From positions 1 through 24,000 of the forward strand of contig CAXXGF010000007.1 of assembly GCA_963677445.2 (NCBI GenBank): a stretch of 24,000 nucleotides of DNA, written 5' to 3'. Within the stretch, counting starts at the first letter, position 1; each line of letters begins with the position of its first letter. Positions 2,061 to 19,862 of this stretch are shown here, in pieces. The position numbers and the translations under genes were made by a program. The DNA is from Melioribacteraceae bacterium. GTDB lineage: Bacteria > Bacteroidota > Ignavibacteria > Ignavibacteriales > Melioribacteraceae. The notes under the pieces are model-generated. The model was not told the origin of the DNA and did not search any database. It saw only the letters and a program-made list of their open reading frames with translations.

Positions 2061-2096
2061 GAGCCGCCCGAATTCCAAATCTAAGTCGATAAAAGC

Positions 2097-2449
2097 CTAA
2101 CCACAAGGAACACAGGGAAGGCACAAAGAACACAAGGGAATAACTCCGCGCCTTTAGGCCGGAGACCTCGGGCTGACGTGAACACACTCAAAGGGCTTTA
2201 GCCCAAAGAACGGTTGTTGGCGAATGACCATCTTTGCGCATTCCAACCCCGCCATTGTCTGAACCATAATTAAAGGATTTGTGGATTACCTGATTATTTT
2301 TCGGTATCGGTATCGGTATCGGTATCGAAAAATCAGAGTAAGAGTATGAGTATGAGTATGATGACCAGGTTGGGTGACGGCGCCGGGGGTGTTGATTTTG
2401 TTCTGGGGGGTGGGATTATGATTAAGATTACGATTAAGATTATGATTTT
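2097..2449 (-). repeat. Mosaic intergenic repeat, copy A (core inverted relative to copies B and C) plus three hexanucleotide arrays
   Basis: The reverse complement of 2097-2327 aligns module by module with 16725-16947 and 19486-19690. It is followed by (cggtat)x4 at 2302-2325, (agagta/tgagta)x5 at 2335-2364, a G-rich spacer, and (gattaN)x6 at 2414-2449. Confidence 0.8.
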
Positions 2450-2552: not shown

Positions 2553-4091
2553 ATGAAAAAAATCCTTCCGCTGATTTTATTATCCCTGTTATTGTTTGCG
2601 TGCGGGGCGAAAAGGGAAAATGAACCGCGCAGGCATATGTTCCTCAGCAATGAAAAGTTATTTGAGTTCAATAACCTGAGAATTTACCAGGTGATGGTGG
2701 AATCCTTTATAGATGGCGATCCTGAAAGAAACTATGACACCGGGTATGGCCCGAGTCACCACAAAGGTGATCTTAAGGGAATTACTAAAGCTCTGCCATA
2801 TATAAAAAGTCTTGGTGTTAACGCCATCTGGTTGACGCCCATCTTCGATTCTGAGAAAGGAAACGGCGGCAATCCCCGGCTCGACGCGACAGGTTATTTC
2901 CCCCGCAACTACTTCAAGGTTGATCCCAATTTCGGCACGATGGAAGACGCGAAGGAGATGGTGAGGAAAGCTCATGAACTGGGACTATATGTAATTATGG
3001 ATGGAGTATTCGGACACAGCAAGGGAAATGTTCCCCCATCGCCGAATGGAAATAACATCTATGGCGATCCGGCGCACCATTCTTTCCCCGAAAGCCTCGA
3101 ATTTTTCAGGGAAGTGGCAGTATGGTGGATAAATGAAATTGAAATAGATGGCTGGCGGCTTGATCAGGCTTACCAGGTTCCGACATATTGCTGGAAAGTT
3201 ATCCGGGAGGATGTGGAAAAACTATGCGCCAAAAGGAAAGCGGCCGGCAAAAAATGGGGAACCCTGGGTTACATGGTAGCCGAAATATGGAACAGCGAGT
3301 TTGTTATATCGGAAAAAGGATATGGCACTGTTGATACCGCCGGACTTTTTTCAGCGTTCGATTTCCCGATGCGCTACCGAATCGTTCAGGCGCTCGCAGT
3401 TGAGGAAAACGGCCATGGCAAAACTCCCGCCTGGATACTTGAGAATGGTTACGCCACCCATAAGGTTTATCCCGAGTTTGCCATCCCCAACCTGATGCTC
3501 GGCAATCATGATCTTGTGCGTTTTGGCGATCTGCTGGAAAGAGCGGGTTACGGAGGCAGGGACAACGAAGAATACTGGCAGAGGCATAAATGCGCCTTTA
3601 CATTCATGGCAACTTATACAGGTCCCATTACTATTTATTATGGTGATGAGATCGGGTATGACCACCCAAATTATTATAAATTACTCAACAGGACTACCGA
3701 TTCCTGCATCGTTAAAAATTTATGTGATGATCATGTTTCACGCACATCGGGTAAAATTTCAAGATTTGACGAAAAGGAAAAAGATCTGCAGAATTTCCTC
3801 AGGAAAATGTTAAAACTGAGGGAGGAATATCCGGCGTTATCACAGGGAGAGAGGACGAATATACTCGCAAATGAAATTTTTCATGCCGATTTGAAAACTT
3901 TTAAGGGAGAAAAGCTTCTAATAATTATAAACACAACCGGATCTCCGGCAGAATTTGTTATTAAAGCCGAACAAATTCCGGGGAAAAAACTGCATGACAT
4001 TTTATCCGGAAGTGAAATCAGCGCCACGGATGGTGAATTCTGCGGAAATCTTGACAAACTTTCCGGCGCTTTTTACAAAATAATAAATTAA
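2553..4091 (+). CDS. GH13 alpha-amylase-family glycoside hydrolase, lipoprotein
   Basis: It has a lipobox signal (MKKILPLILLSLLLFAC) and the four GH13 conserved regions: VIMDGVFGH, DGWRLDQA, MVAEIW and LGNHD. Confidence 0.9.
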   Translation: MKKILPLILLSLLLFACGAKRENEPRRHMFLSNEKLFEFNNLRIYQVMVESFIDGDPERNYDTGYGPSHHKGDLKGITKALPYIKSLGVNAIWLTPIFDSEKGNGGNPRLDATGYFPRNYFKVDPNFGTMEDAKEMVRKAHELGLYVIMDGVFGHSKGNVPPSPNGNNIYGDPAHHSFPESLEFFREVAVWWINEIEIDGWRLDQAYQVPTYCWKVIREDVEKLCAKRKAAGKKWGTLGYMVAEIWNSEFVISEKGYGTVDTAGLFSAFDFPMRYRIVQALAVEENGHGKTPAWILENGYATHKVYPEFAIPNLMLGNHDLVRFGDLLERAGYGGRDNEEYWQRHKCAFTFMATYTGPITIYYGDEIGYDHPNYYKLLNRTTDSCIVKNLCDDHVSRTSGKISRFDEKEKDLQNFLRKMLKLREEYPALSQGERTNILANEIFHADLKTFKGEKLLIIINTTGSPAEFVIKAEQIPGKKLHDILSGSEISATDGEFCGNLDKLSGAFYKIIN

Positions 4092-4103
4092 TCAGGGAGA
4101 ATT

Positions 4104-7100
4104 ATGTTCAAAAAATTCGTTTTTCTGTTACTGTTTTTACTTATTTCCATCCCGGCGGCGGGACAGAACAAATCACACATCCCCGACGCTCTCATGCTCC
4201 GTTATCCCGATGTAAGCAAGACTGAAATAACCTTTATTTACGCCGGTGATATCTGGGTAGCCCCCAAAACGGGAGGAATGGCCCGCAGGTTAAGTTCGGC
4301 CGATGGCAATGAATCCTTTCCGAAATTTTCACCCGACGGATCGCAGATCGCCTTTACAGCCAACTATGACGGCAACCGGGACCTCTATATTACAGGCTCG
4401 CTCGGCGGAGCGCCCTACAGAGTAACACATCACTCAGCCTCCGATAATATGGTTGACTGGTACCCGGACGGCAAAAGTCTGCTTTACCAAACCGCCATGA
4501 CATCCCCTTCCGGAAGATACAGCCAGCTCTATAAAGTACCGGTAAAGGGTGGCCTGCCGGAAAAACTGCCTATGGATTATGGTGATTTTGCTTCTCTTAA
4601 TTCCGACGCCTCAAAGATTGTTTATCAGCCATCCAACCGTGAGTTTGCCACCTGGAAAAGATACCGGGGGGGTATGGCAAGCCAGCTTTGGATATATGAT
4701 CTGAAAAACAACAAGTCGGAAAAAATGACAGAATTTGCCGGGGCCGACGCGCTCCCTATGTGGCATGGCAACACTATCTATTTCCTTTCCGACCGTGATG
4801 ACAACAAAAAACTGAATATCTGGGCTTATGACACCGGGAGCAAAAAATTCACCCGGGTAACAAAATTTGATGAATATGATGTAAAATGGCCCTCGCTCGG
4901 ACCCGAAGAGATTGTGTTCGAAAACGGAGGCAAGCTTTATCTTCTCGATCTGGCGAGCGGGAAAAGCAAAGCGGTTGAGATATCCATTCCTTCCGAACTG
5001 CTGCAGTCACGCCCCGCCAATAAAAATGTAGCGGGTAATATTGAAGGATACAACCTTTCACCCAAAGCCAACAGGGTGGTATTTGAAGCCCGCGGCGATA
5101 TTTACACCGTCCCGAAAGAACATGGCAGCACAAGGAATCTTACTCAGACAAGCGGTGTTGCTGAAAGAGATCCTGTATGGTCACCCGACGGAAAATATAT
5201 CGCTTATCTTTCAGATAAAACGGGCGAATATGAAATATACCTGCGTGAGCCGGGTCTGACTGGAAAAGAGAAACAGCTTACCAGCGGCGGCGAGGCTTAC
5301 CGTTACAACCTTAAATGGTCGCCCGATAGCAAGAAAATCGCTTTTTCAGATAAAGCGGGCAAAATTTATATCGCCGACGCGGAATCGGGAAGCATAACAG
5401 AAGTTGATAAAAATGATTTTTATTTTTTCACCGATTTCGACTGGTCACCCGACAGCAGGTGGTTCGCTTATCAGAAACATGAAACATTTTCGGTAAGATC
5501 AATTTTTATATACGATACAAAAGAGGAAAAAATTCACAGGGTTACCGATAATTATTATAACGATTCACAGCCTGTATTTGATCCCGACGGCAAATATCTT
5601 TATTTCTATTCCAACCGCACCTTCCGCCCGGTTTACAGCGACTACCAGCGGACATGGGTATATCCCAACGCCACTTATATTTACGCCCTGGTGCTCAATA
5701 GCGAGGAAAAATCACCTTTTGCTCCCCGCAGTGATGAAGTGGAAATAAAGGAGGAAAAAAAGGAAGACGCTGATAAAGATGAAGAGAAAAAGGAAGAGAA
5801 AAAAGAGGAAGATGACGACGCTGTAGTGATCGATTTTAACGATATGGAAAAGAGAATCGTACAGCTTGGAAGCGACGGCGGCAATGTCGGCAATATGGAA
5901 GCTGTATCCGGCAAGGTACTCTATATTATCAATCCCGTTTCGGGTGAAAGAACTTCAGGACCCTCCGGCACATTAAAATATTATGACCTTGAGGAGCGGG
6001 AAGCCAAAACAATAATGAGCGGGATATCTAACTTTACCGTATCTCCCGACGGCAAAAATATTCTTTACAGAGCGGGAGGAACATTCGGCGTTATCGGAAT
6101 CAGCGCGGGTAAAAAAGTCGGAGACGGCAAGCTCGATCTCGGCGGCCTGCAGACTGTAGTTGACCTGAAGCAGGAATGGAAACAGATATTCCGTGAAGGC
6201 TGGAGAGTGGAAAGAGATTATTTCTACGATCCCGGCATGCATGGCGTCGACTGGGATAAAATGTATGACCGCTATTCAAAACTGCTCCCTTATGTGAATA
6301 GCAGAAGTGATCTTACCTATATTATGGGTGAGATGATAGCCGAACTTAGTGTGTCGCACGCTTATATCGGCGGCGGCGATCAGGAAAGGGCAGCGACTAT
6401 CAATGTGGGACTGCTCGGCTGCGATTATAAGATCAAAGATGGATATTTCACTTTCAGCAAAATTTATGAAGGCGCCCCCTGGGATTATCACGATACCCGC
6501 TCACCACTCAGAGAGCCTGGCATTGATGTTAAGGAAGGTGAATATCTTATAGCCGTCAATGGCCGCAAACCGGATATCAAAAAAGATCCGTGGGCCGCTT
6601 TCCAGGGACTCGCAGGCGAGGTGGTAACTCTTACCATCAACGACAAACCCTCATCCGACGGCGCCCGTGAAATAATGGTCGAACCGATGAGAAGTGAAGC
6701 TTCACTCAGGAATATGGCCTGGATTGAACACAACAGGGCCAAAGTTGATAAAGCCACAAACGGACGCTGCGGTTATATATATGTGCCCAATACAGGCATC
6801 AACGGCCAGACAGAACTTCTCAGGCAGTTTATGGCTCAGTACACCAAAGACGCGCTGATCATCGATGACCGCTTTAACGCCGGCGGCCAGATTCCTGACC
6901 GGTTTATCGAACTGCTTAACCGCCAGGTTTACAGTTACTGGGCAAGAAGAGATTTTAATAATTACCGCACTCCGTTTGTTACCAATACCGGCCCCAAGGT
7001 AATGCTGATGAACGAGTGGTCAGGCTCCGGCGGCGACGCTTTCCCCTATTTCTTCCGCCAGGCGGGACTCGGCAAACTTGTTGGTAAACGCACATGGGGA

Positions 7101-7493: not shown

Positions 7494-9122
7494 TTATATT
7501 GTTTTTAATCCCAACTCTTTCAGGAATTCATTGTGTTTTTCAGTATTGGTCTTTATCCTTTCATTTATCGATTTCAAGTCTGCGTTAACTTTATCCAGGT
7601 CAATTGAAATTTCATCTTCTGCTGTGCTGACATATCTTGAAATGTTAAGGTTGTAACCATTCTTTTCAATTTCTTCCATCGAAACTTTTCTTGAAAAGCG
7701 TTCCGTTTCTTTTCTGTATTTATAAGTCTCTACTATAGATTTAATATGTTTTTCAGCTAAACTGTTCTGTCGTTTTCCATTTTCATATTGCTCACTGGCA
7801 TTAATGAATAAAACATCATCTTCTTTTTTACATTTTTTTAATACAAGAATGCAAACAGGAATTCCCGTTGAATAAAACAGTTTAGATGGCAAACCAATAA
7901 CTGTGTCAATATTGTTATCTTTTAATAGCTTGGTGCGAATTCGTTCTTCCGCTCCGCCACGGAATAAAACGCCATGGGGAAGTATGATAGCCATGGTTCC
8001 TTCACCACTTAAAAAATGAAATCCATGTAACAAAAAAGCAAAATCGGCTGCAGATTTTGGAGCCAGCCCATAACTTTTAAAACGGAAATCTTCTGCCAGG
8101 GTATCGTTCGGTTCCCATCGTAAGCTAAAAGGAGGATTTGCCACGATGGCTTCGAATTCCATTTTTTTTGCCGGATTCATTTCATTAAGAATATCCCATT
8201 GGTTGATCAGGGTATCTCCATGAAATATTTCAAACTCGGTATCTTTCATGCCATGCAGCAACATGTTCATACGGGCCAGATTATAGGTGGTAATGTTCTT
8301 TTCCTGACCATATATTTTGCCGATATTGCCACCGTTATCCTTAATTCGTTTTCTCACATTCAACAATAATGAACCTGAGCCGCAGGCAAAATCCAGCGCG
8401 TTATCCAGTTTGCCTTTCTTTCCAGTGCTTGGGTCTTGACTATCAAGTGTTACAATTTCCGAAAGAATGGTTGAAATTTGTTGGGGAGTATAAAATTCGC
8501 CTGCTTTTTTGCCCGAACCTGCGGCAAATTGACCAATCAGATATTCATACGCATCCCCAAGGGTATCGGTGTCAGTGGAAAAATCAGCAATTCCTTCCGC
8601 AATTTTTTGGATAATGGTGCAAAGTTTTTTATTTCGTTCAGTGGGTGTTTTTCCAAGTTTATCAGAATTTAAGTTTATTTCCGAAAACAAACCCTGGAAA
8701 GAATTTTCAAACGATTCGTTTTCAATGTATTTAAAACCTTTTACCAGTGTTTCAAGCAATTCTCCATCCTGCGTGCGGGCAAGTTCTGTGATATTATTCC
8801 ACAAAAATTCCGGTTTGACTACATAATGCACTTTTCTACGCATTTGTTTTTCAAAGTCAACAACATCATCCGGATTTTCTTTGTACCATTTCTCTAATGG
8901 TGGCTTAATCTTAAGTTTAGAGGTTATATCCGGTGGGGTATCGGCCGGGTAATCACGCCCCAATTCCTTTTTTGCAGACTCTTCATAATTTGTAGACAAA
9001 TATTTTAGAAAAAGAAATGAAAGCATATAATCACGGAAATCGTCCGCGTTCATCGCTCCACGAAGTTGGTCTGCTATGTCCCAAAGGGTTTTACCCAGTT
9101 GTTGTTGTTCTTTTTGTGTCAT
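7494..9122 (-). CDS. hsdM: Type I restriction-modification system, N6-adenine DNA methyltransferase subunit M
   Basis: It has an HsdM N-terminal domain (LGKTLWDIADQLRG), SAM motif I (DFACGSGSLLL) and catalytic motif IV (VANPPFSLRW). Its ATG overlaps the upstream gene's TGA (ATGA at 9119-9122). Confidence 0.95.
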   Translation of the reverse strand: MTQKEQQQLGKTLWDIADQLRGAMNADDFRDYMLSFLFLKYLSTNYEESAKKELGRDYPADTPPDITSKLKIKPPLEKWYKENPDDVVDFEKQMRRKVHYVVKPEFLWNNITELARTQDGELLETLVKGFKYIENESFENSFQGLFSEINLNSDKLGKTPTERNKKLCTIIQKIAEGIADFSTDTDTLGDAYEYLIGQFAAGSGKKAGEFYTPQQISTILSEIVTLDSQDPSTGKKGKLDNALDFACGSGSLLLNVRKRIKDNGGNIGKIYGQEKNITTYNLARMNMLLHGMKDTEFEIFHGDTLINQWDILNEMNPAKKMEFEAIVANPPFSLRWEPNDTLAEDFRFKSYGLAPKSAADFAFLLHGFHFLSGEGTMAIILPHGVLFRGGAEERIRTKLLKDNNIDTVIGLPSKLFYSTGIPVCILVLKKCKKEDDVLFINASEQYENGKRQNSLAEKHIKSIVETYKYRKETERFSRKVSMEEIEKNGYNLNISRYVSTAEDEISIDLDKVNADLKSINERIKTNTEKHNEFLKELGLKTI

Positions 9123-10327
9123 TCTTCTTCCGGTTGAATTTCTTCGTTGAATATTTCTGGGAATTTAAATTTATATTTCTCTGTAAAGCCCTGAAGTATC
9201 TTTTTGAATAAATCTTTAGTGTCAGGCGTCATTGGTGATGGAGCAAACAAGGAATATTTGCCATGGCTTAGTAACTGTACCGCTCTGTGAAAAAGGACTT
9301 CATCCTCTAAACCATGAATCACTTCATCAATTTTATCATATCCAAAAAAGCTTACTGTTTTTTCCATAACCGTACGTAAACCATTAAAATGGTAGGTGTG
9401 AATAACCTCTGATTTAGCCACTCTGTCAAGTTCACTCAATAAAGCAACGTGGTGAAAAAATGGTGTGTCACCTGTGTCTTGTAACTTATAATCTTTCGAG
9501 CCGTTTGAATGAAGGAAAAATGTCTTGCGTTTCATTTTTAATTCATTATACATCACATTAAAAAAAAGGCTGTGGTGAGTCGACAAGACTACCTTTACTT
9601 TTCGTTCTCTTTCAACCTTCTTTTTCTCCCCAGCTTCCTCGATTTCTTTATATATCCCACTTTCCATAGTTGTAGCTAAACCACAGGCTAATGCAACCGT
9701 ATTATTTTCGTCTAATGAAGAAATTGGGTCATCAATGTATACGTACTTTACCCAATCGTAGCCTTCAGCACCATCAATTGCCAATTCATAAATGGCTAAG
9801 AAGAAACACCAGATAAATAGATTTTCTTCTCCTCTGGATATTTTAATATCTTCAACATTTTGTGCTACACCATCTACCAACTCTTCTCTCATAAATCTAA
9901 CCGCCCAGTATGTCTTGGGATTCTCTTCCCCGACCTCAGTAGGTTTCACGTAATTAAAATCGGTTACAAAGTTGAAGTCACTGTAATTATGAAGTATAGG
10001 CCGAATTTTATTGTCTATATCTAAATTCTCAATACCACCAAAAAATTTAGAATGCTTGTTCAGTAAAAGTACTCTATGTTCATCGCCATCTAAATCATTA
10101 TCCCAAGAGAATAAATCTTCAGTAAAAGCATTAAAATACAATGTGTCTCTTATACTGTCACCTTGTTTGCCTATTTCTTTAAACTCCATTGATAAACGAG
10201 TTTTTCCAATACCATTGTGTGCAAATAATAAAATAAGATTTTTTTTATTCTCATGATCACCTGCGAAAATTCTTCTAAAATGTGCAGCTATATTTAATAA
10301 ATTTTCAAAATTTCTTCTTGTACTCAA
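9119..10327 (-). CDS. prrC: PrrC-like anticodon nuclease: ABC/AAA_13-type NTPase N-domain plus putative ACNase C-domain
   Basis: It is 402 aa and embedded between hsdS and hsdM. It has Walker A (AHNGIGKT), an ABC-signature-like ISRGEE, Walker B/D-loop (YVYIDDPISSLD) and an H-loop (LSTHH). The C-terminus has NGLRTVME (R-x3-E) followed 33 residues later by LLSHG, which resembles the Arg-Glu-His triad spacing described for E. coli PrrC. It uses a TTG start 7 nt downstream of GGAGGG. Confidence 0.65.
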   Translation of the reverse strand: MSTRRNFENLLNIAAHFRRIFAGDHENKKNLILLFAHNGIGKTRLSMEFKEIGKQGDSIRDTLYFNAFTEDLFSWDNDLDGDEHRVLLLNKHSKFFGGIENLDIDNKIRPILHNYSDFNFVTDFNYVKPTEVGEENPKTYWAVRFMREELVDGVAQNVEDIKISRGEENLFIWCFFLAIYELAIDGAEGYDWVKYVYIDDPISSLDENNTVALACGLATTMESGIYKEIEEAGEKKKVERERKVKVVLSTHHSLFFNVMYNELKMKRKTFFLHSNGSKDYKLQDTGDTPFFHHVALLSELDRVAKSEVIHTYHFNGLRTVMEKTVSFFGYDKIDEVIHGLEDEVLFHRAVQLLSHGKYSLFAPSPMTPDTKDLFKKILQGFTEKYKFKFPEIFNEEIQPEEE

Positions 10328-10329
10328 TT

Positions 10330-11661
10330 TTATCCCTCCATTTTCGGAAACAACCCCTGCATCAAACCTTTTTTATGCTGCTGCAATTGCTCTATTTTTT
10401 CTGACTGTGCCGTGATTAACTCATCCAAAGCCGAAAGACAGGAGGCGATTTTTTGTTGTTCTTCAAGGCGCTTTGGAATAACCAAACAATATTCTTTTAG
10501 ATTTGAAATAGAGATTGCAGGTTGTGCACCAACTTTTTTAATTGCATCTAATTTTTGAGTTTGGTGATGAAACCAAAGTTGCTGCCATATAAAGTTTGTG
10601 GAAAACCTATTTTCATCAACTGTTATTTTCAAAGCGTTTCCTGACAAAATACCTTCTTCATGCTCCAATGGAAATATTGCACTTGCACCACATCTTGCAC
10701 CAATCTTTGCCATAACAATATCACCACCATTAACAGCACTCCTTTTTTCTTTTTCAAATTTTTCTTTTGTAACATATAAATAATCTTTAGCATGGAAGAT
10801 TCCATCAGTGACATATCCACTTGTTATAATTGGAATACCCTGCTTTTTATAATGAATGGTTTTTAAGTTCGAACCAAATGGACCATCAACAATTCCATAT
10901 TTTTTCCCAGGCGGAGTGACTTTTTTTAAAGCTATTGTTTTCCATTCCTCATCTTTTTTAAACTCCGAAAAACGGTAATTAGGCGCTTTCTGCCCTTCCT
11001 GCGGAAAAAGGTTTTGCATCAAGCCTTTTTTGTGGTCTTTGAGGGCTTGCAGCTTTTCATTATGTGCGGTTATCAGCTCATCCAAAAAAGAAAGACAGGA
11101 GGCTATTTTTTGTTGTTCTTTTTTAGTTGGAGGAATAATTAAATCATATTTTTCAAAGTCCTTTTGGTATAAATGGACTATTGAAGAACCACCTGACAAT
11201 TTTTGTAAGAATAATGTAAATCTTTGGCTCAAAAAAGTATAAAAAATGAATTTAGAATATTGATTTACTACTCTAATCCTAAAAATACCATTATTTAAAG
11301 TTGCTTTTCTGTTATTCAAGTTCTCAACATAAGCAACTTTTCCTATACTACCATCTTTTGTAATTAGAATGTCTCCCTCTTTTAAAATAATATTTTCATC
11401 TTGAATATACCTGCCATAACTAACGAATTTGGCATTTTCCCAATCTACCATGTTATTTTTAAAATCAGTACCAGTTATTAAAAAATAATCACCTTTATCC
11501 AAGTGTTCTTCTTTTCGTAAATTTTGCCATCCTATTCTGGCTTTCATTGAGGCAATACTTAGAATACCTGATCCCTCCCACTCTCCATCCTTCACAAACT
11601 CAGGAAAACGCAATGCGGGCAGCAAATTCTTTTCTTTATTCATTTCCAGTCTTTGTTTCAA
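10330..11661 (-). CDS. hsdS: Type I restriction-modification specificity subunit S (two target-recognition domains)
   Basis: Two variable TRDs are each followed by a near-identical conserved helix (QQKIASCLSFLDELITAHNEKLQALKDHKKGLMQNLFP and QQKIASCLSALDELITAQSEKIEQLQQHKKGLMQGLFP). The ORF-track start is a TTG at 11661. An ATG at 11643 is an alternative. Either start overlaps the upstream gene's end. Confidence 0.9.
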   Translation of the reverse strand: MKQRLEMNKEKNLLPALRFPEFVKDGEWEGSGILSIASMKARIGWQNLRKEEHLDKGDYFLITGTDFKNNMVDWENAKFVSYGRYIQDENIILKEGDILITKDGSIGKVAYVENLNNRKATLNNGIFRIRVVNQYSKFIFYTFLSQRFTLFLQKLSGGSSIVHLYQKDFEKYDLIIPPTKKEQQKIASCLSFLDELITAHNEKLQALKDHKKGLMQNLFPQEGQKAPNYRFSEFKKDEEWKTIALKKVTPPGKKYGIVDGPFGSNLKTIHYKKQGIPIITSGYVTDGIFHAKDYLYVTKEKFEKEKRSAVNGGDIVMAKIGARCGASAIFPLEHEEGILSGNALKITVDENRFSTNFIWQQLWFHHQTQKLDAIKKVGAQPAISISNLKEYCLVIPKRLEEQQKIASCLSALDELITAQSEKIEQLQQHKKGLMQGLFPKMEG

Positions 11662-12661
11662 TCAGTTTACGGTTATGGGCTGCTATCATATCAGCCAGTG
11701 CTTCTTCAGAAGGCAGCACCGTTTTATATTTGGAGGCAAATAGTTGTTTATTTTCCTGCAGTACGGAATATTTTACAATGGTTTCATCTTTTTCGGCGCA
11801 AAGGATAATGCCTATTGTGGGGTTATCACCTTCACCACGTTTTAACGCGTCAAACATGCGCACATACATATCCATTTGCCCAATATCGGCATGGTTGAGT
11901 TTCCTGGTTTTTAAATCAATCACCACAAAACATTTGAGCAGGTAATTATAAAACAACAGATCGATATAAAAATGAGCGCTTTCGGTGCTAATCCGCATTT
12001 GGCGATCCACAAAAGAAAAACCTTTCCCCAGTTCAAGTAAAAATTTTTGCAGGTTTTCGATGAGCGCCTTTTCCAAAACAGACTCTTTACCTGTGAGATT
12101 TTCCGGGACGTCTAAAAATTCAAGAATGTAAGGATCTTTGATAAAATCGGCAGGCTTGTATTTTTCTGTCTCCATTACCGTTTGGCTATCCTGTGAAGCA
12201 AGCAAACGATGATAGCAGCCGCTTTTGATATTTCGCTCCAACTGTCTGGAACTCCAATTTTGCGCTGACGCTTCTTTAATATAAAAATCCCTTTCTTCCG
12301 GCGTATTCAAACGCATAATTATGCGGATATTGGTCCAGCTCAGATTGGCTACGCACCGCGTATCCAATTGGTCATACTCGGGAAAGGTGATAAAAAACTG
12401 CCTGATATTCTTCAGGTTGGCCTCTGAAAAACCTTTCCCTAAAGTGTCGGACAAATATCTTGAAAGATTGGTGATTAAATATTCGCCATACCCGGCGCGG
12501 TTTTTCCCATGTTGTTCCTGTTCCACAATACGTTTGCCTATCTGCCAGTAAGTTTGCGCCATTACTGTATTAACTGCCCGGAAAGACTTGTTTCTGGCCT
12601 CTATCAGTAAATCACTGATATCAGCAAAAAACTTTTTGTCGATATTTAGATTTTTACTCAT
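11636..12661 (-). CDS. DUF1016 / YhcG-like PD-(D/E)xK nuclease-fold protein
   Basis: The N-terminal helical region (LIEARNKSFRAVNTVMAQTYWQIGKRIVE) and the C-terminal core (KDPYILEFL...LEKALIENLQKFLLELGKGFSFVDRQ...FYIDLLFYNYLLKCFVVIDLK...GQMDMYV...PTIGIILC) match the DUF1016 pattern with its E...D...(D/E)xK residues. The ATG at 12661 overlaps the hsdR stop by 8 nt. The ORF-track TTG at 12697 is an alternative start. Confidence 0.85.
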   Translation of the reverse strand: MSKNLNIDKKFFADISDLLIEARNKSFRAVNTVMAQTYWQIGKRIVEQEQHGKNRAGYGEYLITNLSRYLSDTLGKGFSEANLKNIRQFFITFPEYDQLDTRCVANLSWTNIRIIMRLNTPEERDFYIKEASAQNWSSRQLERNIKSGCYHRLLASQDSQTVMETEKYKPADFIKDPYILEFLDVPENLTGKESVLEKALIENLQKFLLELGKGFSFVDRQMRISTESAHFYIDLLFYNYLLKCFVVIDLKTRKLNHADIGQMDMYVRMFDALKRGEGDNPTIGIILCAEKDETIVKYSVLQENKQLFASKYKTVLPSEEALADMIAAHNRKLIETKTGNE

Positions 12662-15656
12662 AAGCTGCCAATCCTGATATTTCACCTCCACGGGCAAGTT
12701 TTTTTAATTGCGGAACCAAATCATTCATTAAAGCCGATTCGGCTTTGCTGCGTTGTTTCCAACCCAATTCCAGTGGTTCCATTAAGTCGGTAAGTTTTTC
12801 ACCGTCAAAAATCATCCGGTTCATTATTTGTTCGACAAAGTTTTTCAAGTCCGCAGTTGGCAAGCCGTGAGTATTGGCGATGGCAGCCAGCTCCTTGTTA
12901 TATTTCTCGACTTTAAAGATTTCAAAGTTTTGTTTCAGTTCATCCGCGGTTTGTCCTTTGCTCCAATCAACCTGCCTGATATAGTCGGTTAAGTCTTCCT
13001 CTTCCTCCATCAGGTTTGAATTGGATTTCAACAAACTAATTACCTGCGCTTTTGTCATTTTTTGTTTAGAAGGTTTTTTCTGGGTACTGTCGGCAATCAG
13101 GTTCATGATATAATCGTAATCAATTACCGCAGAAGCAAACAATACAAATTCAAAATCGAGCTGCTGGATTTCCTCCGGCGCGTCATCACCTTCTTTTTGC
13201 TGTATTTCTCTAAATTGTCTTGCAGTTTCTATGTATGAACTTCTGAATTCCTGCAATTTTTCTTTCGGTAAAATGGATTCAATGGTTGATTGTTGCTCTT
13301 CATCCAAATCGGTGTATTGGTCAAGCTGTGTTTTAAGTCGCTGCACTTCTTTAAAGTTTTTCACAAAAGCAATTTTGGCAGCATTACCGCGCAGGTTATA
13401 TACTTCCTGTGGTTCGTTTACCAGATTATGATCCCGCAAAAATTCACCTAACGCTTCAACAGCTTTTTGGTATTTGTCAATCACCACCGGAGCAGGATCA
13501 ACCATCCATATTTCTTTTGCCTTATCGCTATCCTCACCTGAAAAAAGAATAATTGCCTGGTTTACCGCTTCCTCCTGCGAGCGGAAATCAAGAATATTTC
13601 CATACGGTTTTGTATCGTTAAGAATCCGGTTGGTGCGTGAAAGCGCCTGTATCAATCCATGGAATTTCAGGTTTTTGTCCACGTATAAAGTATTCAGGTA
13701 TTTGGAGTCAAAACCTGTAAGCAGCATATCAACCACAATTGTCAGGTCAATCTTGTTATTACGCGGATAATCCTCATTGCTGTATTTCTGGTCTTTGATA
13801 CGTCTTTGTACATCCTGGTAATACAAATCAAATTCATTGATAGTATGATTAGCGCTGTATTGTTTATTGTAATCAGCAATAATTTCCATTAATGCGGCAT
13901 TTTTCTCTTCAGGATTCTGTTTGTTGTCTTCTTTTTCCTGGGCTAAATCTTCCTGAAGTTGTTTTATATCCGCCGCGTTTTTCTGACTTTGCTGGTCTCC
14001 ATTCTTCGCAATCAATTGGGCGGGAGGTGAAAAAACACTTACGATATTGAGCGGTTTAAATTCGGGGTTTTCCTTGAGTATTTTCTTTTGTATCTCTTTG
14101 AAAAGTCGATAGTATTCAATGGCATTATTGATTGATGCTGTCGCGAAAAGGGCATTGAATCTTCTATTGTTTGTTGCGGCGTTATGTTTTTCTATAATGG
14201 CTTCCACTACTGCCTGCTTTGCGAGAGCTTCGCCGGGTTTTGGATTCTGATTGCCTTTGCCTTTAAAATAATCCATGTGAAAACGCAGAACATTCTTGTC
14301 ATCTATCGCATGGGTAATTGTATAGGCGTGCAACTGTTTTTCAAATATCGCCTCAGTCGTATTATAGGTTTCGTATTGCTTTTCACGTATTTTATAAGTC
14401 GCGTTTTCATCAAAAATAGGCGTCCCGGTAAATCCAAAAAGCTGCGCATTCGGGAAGAACTCTTTTATTGCTTTATGATTTTCGCCAAACTGCGAACGAT
14501 GGCACTCGTCAAAAATAAAAACTACACGTTTATTGCTCAATGGCTCAAGACGTTCCTTAAAGTTATTTTTATGTGTGCCATCTAAGGCCAGTCCCAATTT
14601 CTGTATAGTAGTAACAATAACTTTATCGGCATAATCAGCAGAAAGCAACCGCCTTACCAAAGTTTCAGTATTGGTGTTTTCTTCGACGCTTCCTGCCTGA
14701 AACTTATTGAACTCCTCACGGGTTTGTCGGTCAAGGTCTTTACGGTCAACCACAAACAGACATTTTTCAATATCAGGATTGTCTTTTAACAGGGTAGATG
14801 CTTTGAAAGAAGTCAGTGTTTTACCACTTCCGGTAGTGTGCCAGATGTAGCCGTTTCCTCTGTTTTGGTGAATGCAATCAACTATAGCTTTAACCGCATA
14901 AATCTGATACGGTCGCATCACAAGTATTCTTTGTTCGCTTTCTACAAGCGCCATATACTTGCTAATCATTTCACCCAAAGTGCATTTTGATAAGAACTTT
15001 TTTGTGAAAGGTTCAAGGTGGCTTATCTTATTATTTTGCTCATCTGCTAATCTGTAAATCGGCAGGAATTGTTCATCTGCGTTGAATAAAAAATGCTGAT
15101 TTTTATTATTGGCAAAATAGAAAGTGTTGCTGCGGTTACTAACGATGAATAACTGCATGAAACACATCAATGTATTTCCATAGCCATTGCCGGGTTCGTT
15201 TTTATAATCCACTATTTGCTGCATGGCCTTTCGTGGAGAGATGTCAAGTTTCTTCAACTCAATCTGAACTATCGGCAAGCCGTTAATTAATAGAATGATG
15301 TCATAACGTTGATTGCTGTTTTCAGTGTTTATGCGTAACTGGCTGATTACCTCATACTCATTTTTACACCAATCTTTGATATTTACAAGGGTGTAATGTA
15401 AAGGTGTTCCATCTTCTCGTTGAAAATATTGTCTTTCCCGCAACATTTTTGAAGCAGCGAAAACATCGGGATTAATGATATCCTCCCGTAAACGTAAAAA
15501 CTCGCTTTCCGACAGTCGGACACGGTTTAACGCTTCAAATTTGGCTTTGAAGTTCTGTTCAAGCGATTTCCTGTCTGTAATATCAGGTCGATGAGTGTAT
15601 TTCAACTCTTTGAGCTGCCTGATTAGATTTTCTTCTATTTGATGTTCTTTTGCCAT
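12654..15656 (-). CDS. hsdR: Type I restriction enzyme, restriction/translocase subunit R
   Basis: It has an N-terminal PD-(D/E)xK nuclease motif (YDIILLINGLPIVQIELKK), SF2 helicase motif I (HTTGSGKTLTSF) and a DEAH-type motif II (FIFDECHRSQ), within a long 1000-aa architecture. Confidence 0.95.
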   Translation of the reverse strand: MAKEHQIEENLIRQLKELKYTHRPDITDRKSLEQNFKAKFEALNRVRLSESEFLRLREDIINPDVFAASKMLRERQYFQREDGTPLHYTLVNIKDWCKNEYEVISQLRINTENSNQRYDIILLINGLPIVQIELKKLDISPRKAMQQIVDYKNEPGNGYGNTLMCFMQLFIVSNRSNTFYFANNKNQHFLFNADEQFLPIYRLADEQNNKISHLEPFTKKFLSKCTLGEMISKYMALVESEQRILVMRPYQIYAVKAIVDCIHQNRGNGYIWHTTGSGKTLTSFKASTLLKDNPDIEKCLFVVDRKDLDRQTREEFNKFQAGSVEENTNTETLVRRLLSADYADKVIVTTIQKLGLALDGTHKNNFKERLEPLSNKRVVFIFDECHRSQFGENHKAIKEFFPNAQLFGFTGTPIFDENATYKIREKQYETYNTTEAIFEKQLHAYTITHAIDDKNVLRFHMDYFKGKGNQNPKPGEALAKQAVVEAIIEKHNAATNNRRFNALFATASINNAIEYYRLFKEIQKKILKENPEFKPLNIVSVFSPPAQLIAKNGDQQSQKNAADIKQLQEDLAQEKEDNKQNPEEKNAALMEIIADYNKQYSANHTINEFDLYYQDVQRRIKDQKYSNEDYPRNNKIDLTIVVDMLLTGFDSKYLNTLYVDKNLKFHGLIQALSRTNRILNDTKPYGNILDFRSQEEAVNQAIILFSGEDSDKAKEIWMVDPAPVVIDKYQKAVEALGEFLRDHNLVNEPQEVYNLRGNAAKIAFVKNFKEVQRLKTQLDQYTDLDEEQQSTIESILPKEKLQEFRSSYIETARQFREIQQKEGDDAPEEIQQLDFEFVLFASAVIDYDYIMNLIADSTQKKPSKQKMTKAQVISLLKSNSNLMEEEEDLTDYIRQVDWSKGQTADELKQNFEIFKVEKYNKELAAIANTHGLPTADLKNFVEQIMNRMIFDGEKLTDLMEPLELGWKQRSKAESALMNDLVPQLKKLARGGEISGLAAYE

Positions 15657-15663
15657 TCAAATA

Positions 15664-15927
15664 TTATTCGATTAATAAATCCTTTAGATTGAGATCCAGC
15701 TTAATTTATGAAACGAAAATAATGAATTTACTCTTTTTTTCTCGAAAAACAATATAAAAAGTGTTTGAATAATTATTAATTAGTGTGCTTAATGGTTAAT
15801 ATCTTGCAGGTTTTATAAGCGCCTGATACCATTTGTCAGCCTGCACTTCCGACCAATTCAGACAGGTATAATTCCAAATTTTAAAGAGATCATCAACAGC
15901 TTTTCTTGTGAAATAATATTCAGCCAT
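15664..15927 (-). pseudogene. parE: ParE-family toxin remnant with two in-frame TAA codons
   Basis: The start ATG overlaps the parD stop (ATGGCTGA). The N-terminal 43 codons, MAEYYFTRKAVDDLFKIWNYTCLNWSEVQADKWYQAL, fit ParE. The frame then hits TAA at 15796-15798 and again at 15706-15708. ParE-like remnants (FYIVFREKKSKFIIFVS, KLDLNLKDLLIE) continue in the same frame. The total of 88 codons is shorter than typical ParE, and this reading is not in the ORF track. Confidence 0.6.
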
Positions 15928-16252: not shown

Positions 16253-16387
16253 CAAAAAAGTCCCGTCAGGGATCCGCCGCGTCGGACAGGCTTTCAGATA
16301 ATAGCCCCGCAATTCATTGTGGGGAAATAAGTTAAGAAGTTGATCAAAAGTCCCGCCAGGGATTCTCCGCGGCGAACAGGCGGACAG
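16253..16387. repeat. Two ~35-40 bp direct repeats flanking a small hairpin, upstream of parD
   Basis: aaaagtcccgtcagggatccgccgcgtcggacagg (about 16256-16290) matches aaaagtcccgccagggattctccgcggcgaacagg (about 16346-16380). Between them lies the hairpin ccccgcaat-tc-attgtgggg (16305-16324). Confidence 0.6.
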
Positions 16388-16597
16388 TATTCCCCAGTAA
16401 ATTGATGGTCAAATAAAATTTTGCCATTTTGCGTTGAATTTGACTTCTTATGGAATAATCTTCTCTTTTTTCAAAAGATACCAATTATTGGTGTTAGTAT
16501 CAAGTTTTGCATTAATAATAATACTTACATCTCTTCTCCGCGGGTTTTTCAGCGGATTCAATAATTTGGAAAAAGGATCTCGGTCTTAGGACCTGTA

Positions 16598-16947
16598 GAA
16601 ATTATCCTGATTATCATTAAAATCTTTGCAATCCTGTTCTTTCTTTGCGCGCTTTGCGTATTCTTTTCCTTCGCGGCCTTTGCGTGGAATTTTTACCCCG
16701 GGAAAACGAAAAACGAATGCGATACCGAACCCGATACCGATTTTCATCACGCAATCTTTAAATCCTCTAATCATGGTTCAGGGATTGGCGGTTTGGATTG
16801 TTCAGAAACTGTCAGCCATCTCTCTATGCGCTATTTGGGCTAAAGCCCTTCCCGGTATGTTGAGTTTTTCCGCAAATCACCGGCCTGAAGGCGCGGTGTT
16901 ATTATCGTTGTGCCCCTTGTGCCTTCTTTGTGTCCCATGTGGTCAGG
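16598..16947 (+). repeat. Mosaic intergenic repeat, copy B (most complete)
   Basis: It aligns along nearly its whole length with 19365-19690 (copy C), in its 5' half with 17413-17536 (copy D), and in inverted orientation with 2097-2327 (copy A). Confidence 0.9.
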
Positions 16948-17236: not shown

Positions 17237-17412
17237 ATTTATATCTTCCGCTTTTTATTCTGCTATTTATTCGCATCTGCATCACTCATTCGCGGATATA
17301 ACAACCATCGAATTTTTTCAAAAATATTGTTATTAACACCATTTTGTAATTCCTATAAATAATAACCATTTTTTTTCGAAGCCGCAAGGGAATATTTCAC
17401 CTCGGGAATCAA

Positions 17413-17536
17413 TCTTTTCCTTCGCGGCCTTTGCGTGGAATTTTACCCCGGGAAAACGAAAAATGATTGCGATACCGATACCGAACCCGATACCGATTAT
17501 TTTATCAGGCAATCCCTCAATCCTTGTCATTCAGAA
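17413..17536 (+). repeat. Mosaic intergenic repeat, copy D (5' half only)
   Basis: tcttttccttcgcggcctttgcgtggaattttaccccgggaaaacgaaaaatgattgcgataccgataccgaacccgataccgatt is near-identical to 16663-16745 of copy B. Similarity fades across the last codons and stop of the KilA-N gene. Confidence 0.85.
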
Positions 17537-18328
17537 TTTTCACAGAACTATCCTGTAACAAAATCCGCATTTGCCCGATAGCTATTTGATTCAGTTTCTG
17601 CAGGCGTTCGCTTTGCGGCATTCTTTCATCAATAAAAACCGCATTCAGGTTTTCAAGGTTAGCCAGGCAAACCAATTGAGTTACATTGGCATAGTCGCGA
17701 ATATTGCCTTGTTTATCCGGATTCTCATCACGGTATTGTTTAGCTGTTTTTCCAAACAGGGCCATGTTCAACACATCGGCTTCGCTGGCATAAACCAGGT
17801 TTATTTGCTGTATGTTAAGGTTTTGTGGTATTAAATTCCCCTTAATGGCATCGGTATGTATTCGGTAGTTTATTTTGGTAAGTTGGCGTTTTATATTCCA
17901 TTCCAGTTCTTTCGATTCTGTTTCCTTCAGGCGTTGGAATTCAATTACCAAATAAATCTTGAACTCTGCGCTAATCCACATCCCAAATTCAAATGCAATA
18001 TCCTTGTGTGCATAAGTGCCACCATATCGTCCCGCTTTTGCCGTTAAACCAATAGCATTTGTTTTTTTAACCCATTCTTTAACACTTATTTTGTAACTAT
18101 TTAATCCTGCCTGACTTTTAATTGTGGCGAATTCGCCATAATTAAAATTGGGATTATGGATTCTTTCCCAAATGCCCAAATACTCGAGGGTATTTCTGTT
18201 TCTTAACCAATCAGAAATAAAAAATCACCATCTTTTGATTTTAACATATCGGTTAAAGAGATAAAGTCATCAGGTGTGATTGTAATTGTATTGTCAAGCA
18301 CTCTAATTTTTTTATACTGTTTACTCAT
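17517..18328 (-). pseudogene. KilA-N domain protein, split by a 1-nt deletion in an A6/T6 run
   Basis: The C-terminal ORF (17517-18179 and its open frame up to 18224) reads FFISDWLRNRNTLEYLGIWERIHNPNF...GRYGGTYAHKDIAFEFGMWISAEFKIYL...INYRIHTDAIK, which is KilA-N-family-like. The N-terminal 41 codons, MSKQYKKIRVLDNTITITPDDFISLTDMLKSKDGDF, start at 18328 in another frame. Adding one A to the run at 18219-18224 fuses them into a ~270-aa protein. Confidence 0.75.
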
Positions 18329-19047: not shown

Positions 19048-19364
19048 TGTGATATACTAAATCAAGTTCTTTCTGAAAAAAGTCAGTTATAAAAAATCAG
19101 AGTGAGAATAGGAGTAATAAGTTTGAAAACGGTTATCAGGGGATAAGTGATAAAATTGGATTTATTCTTTTTTCTCGGGCTCAGCGTAAGGTTTTTACGG
19201 GAGGTTTTGTGGGACACGGGGGACTTTGGGTCGGTGAGTTTTGATTATTGAAAATATTTTTTAGTTCGGATGGAGGGACAATGAAAAAACAACTGTCGTC
19301 CGGGTCGTCATAGTCCCGCAGAACTTTTAATATCCAGGGGAAAAGCAAAAGCTATATCAATACC

Positions 19365-19842
19365 GAATTTTTATCCTGCTTATCTATACAATCCTGGTAA
19401 TCCTGTTTTTCTTTGCGCGCTTTGCGTATTCTTTTCCTTTGCGGCCTTTGCGTGGAATTTTCTCCGGAAAACAAAAAACTAATGTGATACCGATATCGAT
19501 ACCGAATTTTAATCACGCAATCCTTAAATCCTTTAATCATGGTTCAGGGATTGGCGGTTTGGGTTGTTCAGAGACTGTCAGCCATCCTTTATGTGTTTTT
19601 GAGGCTAAAGCCATTCCCGGGATGTTGAGTTTTTCCGCAAATCACCGGCCTAAAGGCGCGGTGTTATTATCGTTCTGTTCTTTGTGTTTCAAAAAAATCA
19701 GAGTAGGGGTATGAGTAAGAGTATGATGGCGGGGTTGGTGATTGTATGGGGTTATTCATTTTGCTTATAGGTAGTGGGTAAAAAACGATTGCGATTCAGA
19801 ATTTTTATCCTGGTAATCTATACAATCCTGTAAATCCTGTTC
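19365..19842 (+). repeat. Mosaic intergenic repeat, copy C, with extra modules, bounded by a ~43-bp direct repeat
   Basis: The core 19365-19690 aligns with copy B. It is followed by the (agagta/ggggta/tgagta) array at 19700-19729 and a G-rich segment. The direct repeats gaatttttatcctgcttatctatacaatcctggtaatcctgtt (19365-19407) and gaatttttatcctggtaatctatacaatcctgtaaatcctgtt (19799-19842) flank it. Confidence 0.9.
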
Positions 19843-19862
19843 TGTTTGGCCGGTAATGTTTT

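Follow-up and report, generated by a model that had tools for sequence, protein, structure and literature searches.

The 24,000-nucleotide (nt) stretch analyzed here (the window; positions 1 to 24,000 of contig CAXXGF010000007.1, Melioribacteraceae assembly GCA_963677445.2) carries several copies, designated A–D, of a repeat, one full unit of which, copy B, lies between a ParD/ParE locus and a KilA-N gene. These copies are probably lineage-specific, mosaic, non-coding extragenic repeats of the kind known as repetitive extragenic palindromes (REPs) and bacterial interspersed mosaic elements (BIMEs). They combine GC-rich stem-loops, a high copy number and an extragenic location with a hairpin class that also flanks a Y1 transposase gene in other taxa. 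In sequence, the segment comprising the first hairpin (H1), a spacer, the second hairpin (H2) and TTA is the module conserved at the ends of a 143-aa IS200-like Y1 (HUH) transposase gene that is widespread in Bacteroidota and Ignavibacteriota at low copy number. Tandem amplification and the exchange of segments between copies both occur in the family. The original prediction, made from the letters of the window alone, had offered a BIME-like element as one of several guesses. This guess proved apt, since both tetraloop hairpins of the repeat belong to a REP-type module found on either side of the IS200-like Y1 gene in other taxa.

Conserved blocks and hairpins of the repeat unit

Conservation was read from an alignment of 56 distinct cores (alignment A2). 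The invariant part spans approximately 170 nt and consists of a box denoted as CORE5, a variable spacer, H1, a second variable spacer and H2, the spacers being about 50–70% identical. CORE5 is an unstructured box of 37–45 nt built from four 8-nt AATCnnnn repeats (AATCATGT AATCCATA AATCCTTT AATCATGG TTCAG). The AATC motif recurs family-wide with 6-, 8- and 9-nt periods. H1 (GGGCTAAAGCCC; TTTGGGCTAAAGCCC in the 56-core alignment) comprises 4 bp and a tetraloop. H2 (TCnCCGGCCTRAAGGCGCGGnGTTATT) comprises 8 bp with one bulged G, likewise closed by a tetraloop. RNAalifold predicted only these two hairpins in the 56 copies, and both fold on either strand. One H2 pair covaries within the family, occurring as UA in 34 copies, CG in 10 and AU in 9. 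A scan of all column pairs in the 56 copies revealed no credible further helix and no covariation outside H2, and the 5' half of the unit shows no excess structure (z-score near 0). A GGCGGG/CCYGCC stem noticed by eye was unsupported in the same scan.

In most copies, H2 is followed by a T-rich run. Terminator-like matches in the repeat region of the window numbered 10, against 4.1 ± 2.2 in shuffled sequences, which is a mild enrichment. On the gene-sense strand they fall within the (GGUAUC)n array, on the opposite strand within the CTTTGCG units, and the enrichment does not hold for type-II units (defined below). The terminator or insulator role guessed earlier is thus no more than a possible one, suggested by these hairpin-plus-T-run matches.

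Copy number, unit types and turnover

A search with the hairpin-pair pattern among representatives of 185,579 species returned 54 loci. Forty-two of these are 8-kb blocks of OY782765.1, the chromosome of a related Melioribacteraceae metagenome-assembled genome (MAG) that is the closest complete genome, and the remaining matches are single or double occurrences in Bacteroidota. The counts given for OY782765.1 cover these 42 blocks (336 kb) around exact pattern matches, in a chromosome of 6,885,115 nt. The blocks contain 70 copies according to a relaxed regular expression and 89 matches to model R1, a covariance model built solely from foreign Y1-linked modules, so that the chromosome holds at least 70–89 copies. 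The family is thus not confined to the window; such confinement was one of the outcomes that the original prediction had named as refuting it. All of the counted copies (73/73) are intergenic with respect to open reading frames (ORFs) of at least 150 aa. The blocks often hold several pattern matches spaced 430–560 nt apart, forming tandem arrays. At locus L050, five near-identical 555-nt tandem units occupy a gene-free region between gdhA and a membrane-protein gene. The window itself contains three full hairpin modules, those of copies A, B and C. A scan of Joint Genome Institute (JGI) metagenomes for CORE5 together with H1 gave 0 matches, indicating that this composite is lineage-restricted in that collection.

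Two main unit types were distinguished. Type-I units, represented by copies B and C, run in the order leader, CTTTGCG, (GATACC)n, CORE5, H1 and H2. Type-II units, to which copy A conforms, run in the order MID50, PROM, G-rich block, agagta', (GATACC)n, CORE5, H1 and H2. Recombinant forms are also present, with internal order and orientation remaining constant, and the sequence 3' of H2-TTATT is either one of three discrete alternative modules or unique DNA. The mosaic architecture claimed earlier is thus supported. The module order described earlier also stands, except that the supposed (gataccga)n octamer is in fact the hexamer (GATACC)n. PROM (cttttccattttgcgtagaatttaac...) occurs about 70 times in the OY782765.1 blocks, usually next to cores, and MID50 holds an ATTCCGG...CCGGAAT stem. 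Both modules often occur without the hairpin core and are repeat modules in their own right. The microsatellite-like arrays joined to the units are (GATACC)n, (AGAGTA)n, (GATTAY)n and a 7-nt (GAATTAC)n, with 1 to 8 repeats.

Sequence comparison between copies and between genomes revealed how the family changes. Copies B and C are 87–98% identical block by block and about 88–90% identical over 16598–16912 (315 nt shared), and the arms of copy A are 83–93% complementary to copy C. These values agree with the impression that B and C match at some nine positions in ten and that A is more diverged. The orthologous copy C in the related genome retains CORE5, H1 and H2 with spacers that differ by about 50%, whereas B and C of the window are near-identical to each other; this pattern indicates exchange between copies. 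Between the PIN and amylase genes lies a single core in the window, against three cores and an insertion sequence in OY782765.1. Such unequal core numbers at one locus in two genomes, together with the near-identical tandem units, demonstrate amplification and contraction. The insertion sequence (L032 ~3700–6500 / L055 18290–20231) adjoins the repeat array upstream of the amylase gene, encodes a 151-aa ORF and a Transposase_29 protein, and is missing from the window.

The copies are oriented non-randomly relative to genes. Where the flanking genes are co-directional, 18 spacers hold the element in antisense and 4 in sense orientation (two-sided binomial ~0.004), its H2 end therefore usually pointing at the 3' end of the upstream gene. 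Along OY782765.1, copies are all on the plus strand at 1.0–2.9 Mb, where all 7 arrays are plus, and mixed at 3.2–5.7 Mb. The spread of the arrays is uneven, with about 31 within 3.16–5.72 Mb vs 8 across the other 4.3 Mb.

The hairpin module at the ends of IS200-like Y1 genes

In each of two Runella genomes, the sole exact match to the hairpin-pair pattern adjoins a 144-aa Y1_Tnp gene (Pfam E = 4.4e-25). The ORF ends with '...CAG GGC TAA AGCCC', so its stop codon lies within H1, and clusters of the H1/H2 module are situated on both sides of the gene. The protein carries DHIH and YIRNQEEHH. The latter fits the Y---Q--HH signature and thereby places the protein in subclass 1.2 of Quentin et al. 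2018, who reported this subclass from Cyanobacteria and Bacteroidetes, at low copy number and with no REP associated (PMC6006769). Homologues in Ignavibacteriales MAGs show 64–69% identity, and three independent Ignavibacteriales loci share the arrangement H2'-H1', gene ending in H1, then H2-TTA, although the H2 sequence there differs (CCCCACGATAAATCGTGGGG). More broadly, subclass 1.2 Y1 genes are 64–85% identical across Bacteroidota and Ignavibacteriota (L020 6315–6803; L056/L059/L062 4001–4432; L064–L143), and the MAG GCA_018335975.1 contains two Y1 paralogues. The Y1-linked H2 sequence is lineage-specific and, in most modules, followed by TTA; in the window copies the TTA(T) 3' of H2 is invariant.

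The same organization was found in metagenomes. Among 80 Y1 loci, 76 had enough downstream sequence and 73 enough upstream sequence for evaluation. The stop codon lies in a GGCTAAAGCC hairpin at 52 of the 76 loci, and at 62 of the 76 a tetraloop hairpin whose stem has at least 5 bp appears 20–30 nt farther on. An inverted module precedes the gene at 59–66 of the 73 loci. In an alignment of 67 Y1-linked modules (A5), H2 is 99.6% paired, a percentage that is partly due to construction, as the sequences were pre-selected for a hairpin. Compensatory changes occur in 7 of its 8 pairs, and its covariation score of 0.468, compared with 0.142 in shuffles, was reached in 0/500 shuffles. Model R1 finds window copies A, B and C over their full length (E = 5.3e-10, 4.6e-08 and 1.1e-06, respectively). 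Its matches in Bacteroidota form head-to-head doublets, resembling gene-less REPIN-type derivatives (REPINs being REP doublets that form hairpins).

Besides the pre-selection of the A5 sequences, several observations weigh against a REP-type origin from Y1 ends. No Y1 gene was detected in the window or the 42 OY782765.1 blocks by tblastn of the blocks, and 0 of the best 120 Y1 homologues from protein-database searches, which were not exhaustive, are located on the OY782765.1 chromosome. Y1-driven mobility is therefore only presumed in this lineage and may have died out. CORE5, conserved better than any other block, lacks a Y1-linked counterpart: allowing as many as 4 mismatches, it did not turn up close to the Y1 genes of other taxa. 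The copies are same-orientation singlets within arrays, with neither the inverted doublets of REPINs nor the alternating orientation of BIMEs, and hence lack the two-ended substrate normally needed by IS200-type enzymes. They do not carry the canonical REP tag, GTAG or CGTC, H2 being followed by TTA(T) instead, and the units, at 350–555 nt, are far above the classical REP size. The strand of the copies also shows no clean replichore switch along the chromosome, whose origin and terminus were not located. As for the source of CORE5, an eye-level likeness to the 5' coding end of Y1 was rejected, since nhmmer with a profile of 81 Y1 starts gave no match.

If the window copies are REP/BIME-type repeats derived from Y1 ends, a Y1 enzyme that recognizes H2 and cleaves near TTA would originally have seeded the module by cutting and joining single-stranded DNA. 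The units in this lineage would now multiply mainly via tandem duplication, unequal crossing-over and gene conversion. For the host, they could act as substrates for homologous recombination that reshuffles neighboring cassettes, they would probably place hairpins at mRNA 3' ends, and their AATC repeats may bind a protein. An HUH-based, integron-like arrangement can also be envisaged, in which the units are cis-sites of a domesticated IS200-like Y1 enzyme acting on single-stranded DNA to capture, excise or reorder cassettes, with the AATC box as a loading site for the enzyme or a partner; we consider this very unlikely.

Alternative explanations

The original prediction had also proposed a small RNA (sRNA) gene family. 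Such genes would be transcribed from the upstream module through CORE5, with H1 and H2 plus the U-rich TTATTTT as the 3' terminator and CORE5 as the functional single-stranded region, a seed or a protein-binding site. This model accommodates a highly conserved, unstructured CORE5 followed by two stable hairpins, the T-rich run after H2 in most copies and the strong orientation bias of the copies relative to flanking genes. Searches for known RNAs nevertheless failed to support it. Rfam gave no match in the window at the gathering threshold and only a chance snoRNA match at E <= 10 and E <= 1 (window and tandem unit), ARAGORN found no tRNA or transfer-messenger RNA (tmRNA), and an excess of sigma-70-like promoters was not found. 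The upstream modules differ by unit type (leader plus CTTTGCG vs MID50 plus PROM plus G-rich), so that no promoter module is conserved, and some copies, such as D, are truncated or fused to gene ends. Moreover, structure and covariation do not extend beyond the two hairpins, and the hairpin module is independently explained by its identity with Y1 gene ends. An sRNA gene family is thus unlikely. Another reading takes the repeats for minus-strand genes (MIRGFKDCVMKIGIGFGIAFVFRFPGVK...) of small membrane proteins or type I toxins, with some copies being pseudogenes: copies B and D share a hydrophobic-then-basic frame, B and C each contain a 62-aa ORF, and the ATG is kept in 51/56 copies. Across 72 copies, however, the ORFs starting from this ATG range from 2 to 144 aa (median ~24) in different frames. 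Codon-position variation over the first 12 codons is 84/103/83, without third-position excess, no Pfam match was obtained for the minus-strand ORF, and the hexamer array flips the reading between GIGIG and RYRYRY. These results largely refute the small-protein reading, which retains almost no probability. They bear out the earlier claim that conservation acts at the nucleic-acid level: the conserved, synonymous-biased frame that would have pointed to a real small protein was not seen, and the family stays non-coding.

Mobility by other enzymes was also considered. If the repeats were attC-like recombination sites, the accessory modules would be repeat-bounded cassettes moved by a site-specific recombinase. 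Toxin-antitoxin and KilA-N modules do alternate with copies in the window, the cassette order differs between the two related genomes with breakpoints within repeats, and the hairpins could fold in single-stranded DNA. On the other hand, no integrase or other recombinase is present among the annotated window ORFs, and the units are 3–5x the attC length, without an R''/L''...L'/R' imperfect palindrome across the unit. Most copies genome-wide adjoin ordinary genes or form gene-free tandem arrays, and the breakpoints are accounted for by homologous recombination between 85–98% identical copies. An attC-like function is therefore hardly credible. A transposable element of the miniature inverted-repeat kind (MITE), or a remnant of a DDE-type insertion sequence, mobilized in trans by a conventional transposase would match the high copy number, the intergenic location and the transposases near some arrays (DDE_Tnp_1 and DDE_Tnp_1_6, two each; Transposase_29 in L055). 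Yet the repeat search showed that the units are not bounded by terminal inverted repeats, a finding that also removes the Correia-like guess of the original prediction, and no transposase gene recurs beside the copies. In addition, the 5' ends are modular and variable, and the 3' ends are precise after H2-TTATT, which fits ends defined by hairpins and not by terminal inverted repeats. We regard this origin as highly improbable.

Copies, neighboring genes and synteny in the window

The window copies were recovered by a repeat search and MAFFT alignment, which returned all four earlier placements (A–D). Their modules are listed in Table 1. The BLAST limits of copy C are 19347–19697.

Table 1. 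Repeat copies and associated modules in the window.
Feature	Positions	Strand	Remarks
Copy A, type-II-like core, inverted	2096–2327	-	R1 match 2138–2207, 35.3 bits, E = 5.3e-10
Copy A TGT tail	2096–2135	-	
Copy A H2	2139–2164	-	compensatory CTCCG/CGGAG variant
Copy A H1	2193–2204	-	
Copy A CORE5	2259–2295	-	
Copy A (GATACC)4	2303–2326	-	
Accessory modules joined to copy A	2328–2447	+	agagta hexamer array 2335–2358, G-rich block, (GATTAY)n array
Second REP-like element	16255–16390	-	H2-type hairpin CCCCGCAATTCATTGTGGGG flanked by two 36-nt direct repeats (AAAAGTCCCGYCAGGGAT...)
PROM module copy	16410–16465	+	ttttgccattttgcgttgaatttgac...
Copy B, full type-I unit	16598–16947	+	R1 match 16834–16904, 29.7 bits, E = 4.6e-08; both hairpins fold
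Copy B leader	16602–16638	+	with AATCCTG repeats
Copy B CTTTGCG units	16643–16687	+	
Copy B CCCCGGGAAAACGAAAAA box	16696–16713	+	
Copy B (GATACC)n	16721–16738	+	
Copy B CORE5	16745–16781	+	conserved box
Copy B H1	16837–16848	+	
Copy B H2 plus TTATT	16878–16903	+	
Copy B TGT-rich tail	16908–16947	+	
Copy D, partial unit	17391–17536	+	5' half only, without H1 and H2
Copy D half CTTTGCG block	17413–17438	+	
Copy D CCCCGGG box	17446–17463	+	
Copy D (GATACC)n	17471–17494	+	shortened CORE5 also present
Degenerate agagta/G-rich module	19092–19137	+	within 19085–19365; 61% identity
Conserved pre-leader block	19208–19365	+	across 19208–19482, identity with another copy of the related genome (L055) is 81%
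Copy C, full type-I unit	19365–19697	+	tail truncated; R1 match 19599–19669, 25.7 bits, E = 1.1e-06
Copy C leader	19371–19407	+	
Copy C CTTTGCG	19411–19455	+	
Copy C (GATACC)n	19486–19503	+	
Copy C CORE5	19511–19547	+	
Copy C H1	~19602–19613	+	
Copy C H2 plus TTATT	19643–19668	+	
agagta array and G-rich block, then second, leader-only copy	19693–19850	+	agagta array 19700–19723
Leader-only copy	19781–19850	+	leader 19805–19841

The fragmentary copy formerly placed at 19085–19255 is weak where it resembles the agagta block, but it runs on into the conserved pre-leader segment, which stands. At the orthologous position of the related genome, the region 19693–19850 shows about 90% conservation. 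The earlier remark on the orientation of the agagta array relative to the core was correct, and so was the reported overlap of copy D with KilA-N: the last five codons and the TGA of the KilA-N ORF (17517–18179, minus) lie inside CORE5. R1 matches the second REP-like element on the minus strand at 16299–16362 (22.9 bits, E = 1e-05) and on the plus strand at 16266–16330 (13.3 bits), and the element has a 94% identical copy elsewhere in the related genome (L055). A different, REPIN-like inverted doublet is situated at 1113–1323, upstream of Phd/PIN and near a synteny break at 1434. Its 69-nt arms are 71% complementary and contain the hairpins GCCCTTTCAGGGC and CCCCGGGCAACGCCCGGGG.

The window begins with CorA, Phd/PIN, an alpha-amylase, a Tricorn-type protease and a type I restriction-modification operon, continues with ParD and a truncated ParE, DUF2283, a frameshifted KilA-N, MqsA/HTH plus RelE and a 128-aa ORF, and ends with MlaD, an ABC ATPase, MlaE, UPF0102 and RNase HII. 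The same locus is found in OY782765.1, where the shared genes are about 93% identical and the accessory genes differ in content and order. Synteny is interrupted at positions 2425, 7413 and 19497 of the window, two of which (2425 and 19497) lie in or next to copies, and it picks up again at 19497, inside copy C. The KilA-N and DUF2283 modules occur in opposite orders in the two genomes. A frameshift divides KilA-N into two ORFs, an N-terminal one of 41 aa (18203–18328) and one of 220 aa (17517–18179); the gene is intact in the related genome (290 aa). The ParE toxin (15796–15927) is cut down to 43 aa. The restriction-modification operon (HsdM, HsdS, HsdR; 7494–15656) holds two extra genes, which encode an AAA_13 ATPase (9119–10327) and a YhcG/DUF1016 PD-(D/E)XK nuclease (11636–12697). 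The entire 7494–15656 block is missing at the same locus in OY782765.1.

The neighbors of arrays in OY782765.1 (93 ORFs, 164 Pfam families) are mostly ordinary genes, with PIN and HTH_3 each appearing twice. There is no enrichment of toxin-antitoxin or defense genes among these 93 ORFs, and no gene recurs beside the copies apart from unrelated paralogue families. The idea that the repeats separate accessory gene modules thus holds locally, at the synteny breakpoints of the window, and does not hold genome-wide. The tie to accessory modules is a local feature of a recombination-prone spot.

Significance and comparison with known systems

A literature search for the hairpin sequences and for REPs and their associated tyrosine transposases (RAYTs) in Bacteroidota and Ignavibacteriota found no description of them, and the REP link of subclass 1.2 Y1 appears undescribed in the literature searched. 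Our results connect a large, previously unexplained Ignavibacteriota repeat family to a specific enzyme family. They suggest that subclass 1.2 Y1, widespread in Bacteroidota and Ignavibacteriota and reported to be repeat-less (PMC6006769), has its own REP-type module. If so, REP-RAYT biology would reach beyond Proteobacteria and Cyanobacteria, and the two-hairpin module would offer a substrate for biochemical tests. In practical terms, mosaic tandem units of 350–555 nt cause spurious ORF calls and assembly breaks. The units also mark recombination-prone spots at which toxin-antitoxin and restriction-modification modules are gained, lost and reordered between close relatives.

The family shares partial features with several types of bacterial repeats. 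attC sites are R''/L''-L'/R' imperfect palindromes of 57–141 nt. As in integron attC arrays, such as the Vibrio cholerae repeats, the copies alternate with small accessory genes, including toxin-antitoxin genes, and have hairpins that can fold in single strands. They differ in the absence of an integrase among the scanned window ORFs and of a unit-spanning palindrome, in their much greater length, and in the fact that the majority of copies at other places in the genome have no relation to cassettes. Terminal inverted repeats of 26 nt, accompanied by a TA duplication, delimit Correia elements. Like Correia elements and the NEMIS of Neisseria, the family consists of abundant intergenic repeats with possible promoter or terminator signals and a location at rearrangement points, but its units lack terminal inverted repeats in the repeat search. 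In IS200/IS605 elements (IS608, ISDra2; summarized in PMC6006769), subterminal hairpins near short cleavage motifs set the ends, and the transposase gene overlaps at its 3' end with the right end of the element. Their gene-less derivatives, palindrome-associated transposable elements (PATEs), retain the ends alone. The Y1-linked modules resemble these elements and PATEs in their hairpin ends and in a right end overlapping the Y1 3' end, and the head-to-head doublets of Bacteroidota resemble gene-less derivatives. In contrast to IS200/IS605, the ends of the Y1 locus are inverted copies of one module and not distinct left and right ends, the Y1 gene is low-copy and very conserved (64–69% between phyla), and the window units carry just one end type.

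The closest known systems are the REP/BIME of Enterobacteria and the REPIN-RAYT of Pseudomonas (Nunvar 2010, PMC2817692; Bertels and Rainey 2011, PMC3116915). REPs possess a conserved GTAG or CGTC tetranucleotide at the hairpin foot (Di Nocera 2013, PMC3733652), whereas the family has TTA after H2 and no such tag. The associated Y1 belongs to subclass 1.2 (IS200-like clade, Y---Q--HH) and not to the class 2 RAYTs, and the module contains two hairpins, with the Y1 stop codon inside the first. Unlike REPINs and BIMEs, the copies are same-orientation singlets fused to a 37–45 nt AATC box and hexamer microsatellites, in units of 350–555 nt. The likeness to REPs nevertheless extends over several features. 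Short GC-rich hairpins occur in tens to hundreds of extragenic copies, combine mosaically with other conserved motifs, gather in clusters and tandem arrays, and show compensatory changes in their stems. As in REP/REPIN-RAYT systems, hairpins of this class also border a Y1 HUH gene of single or low copy number, here in other taxa.

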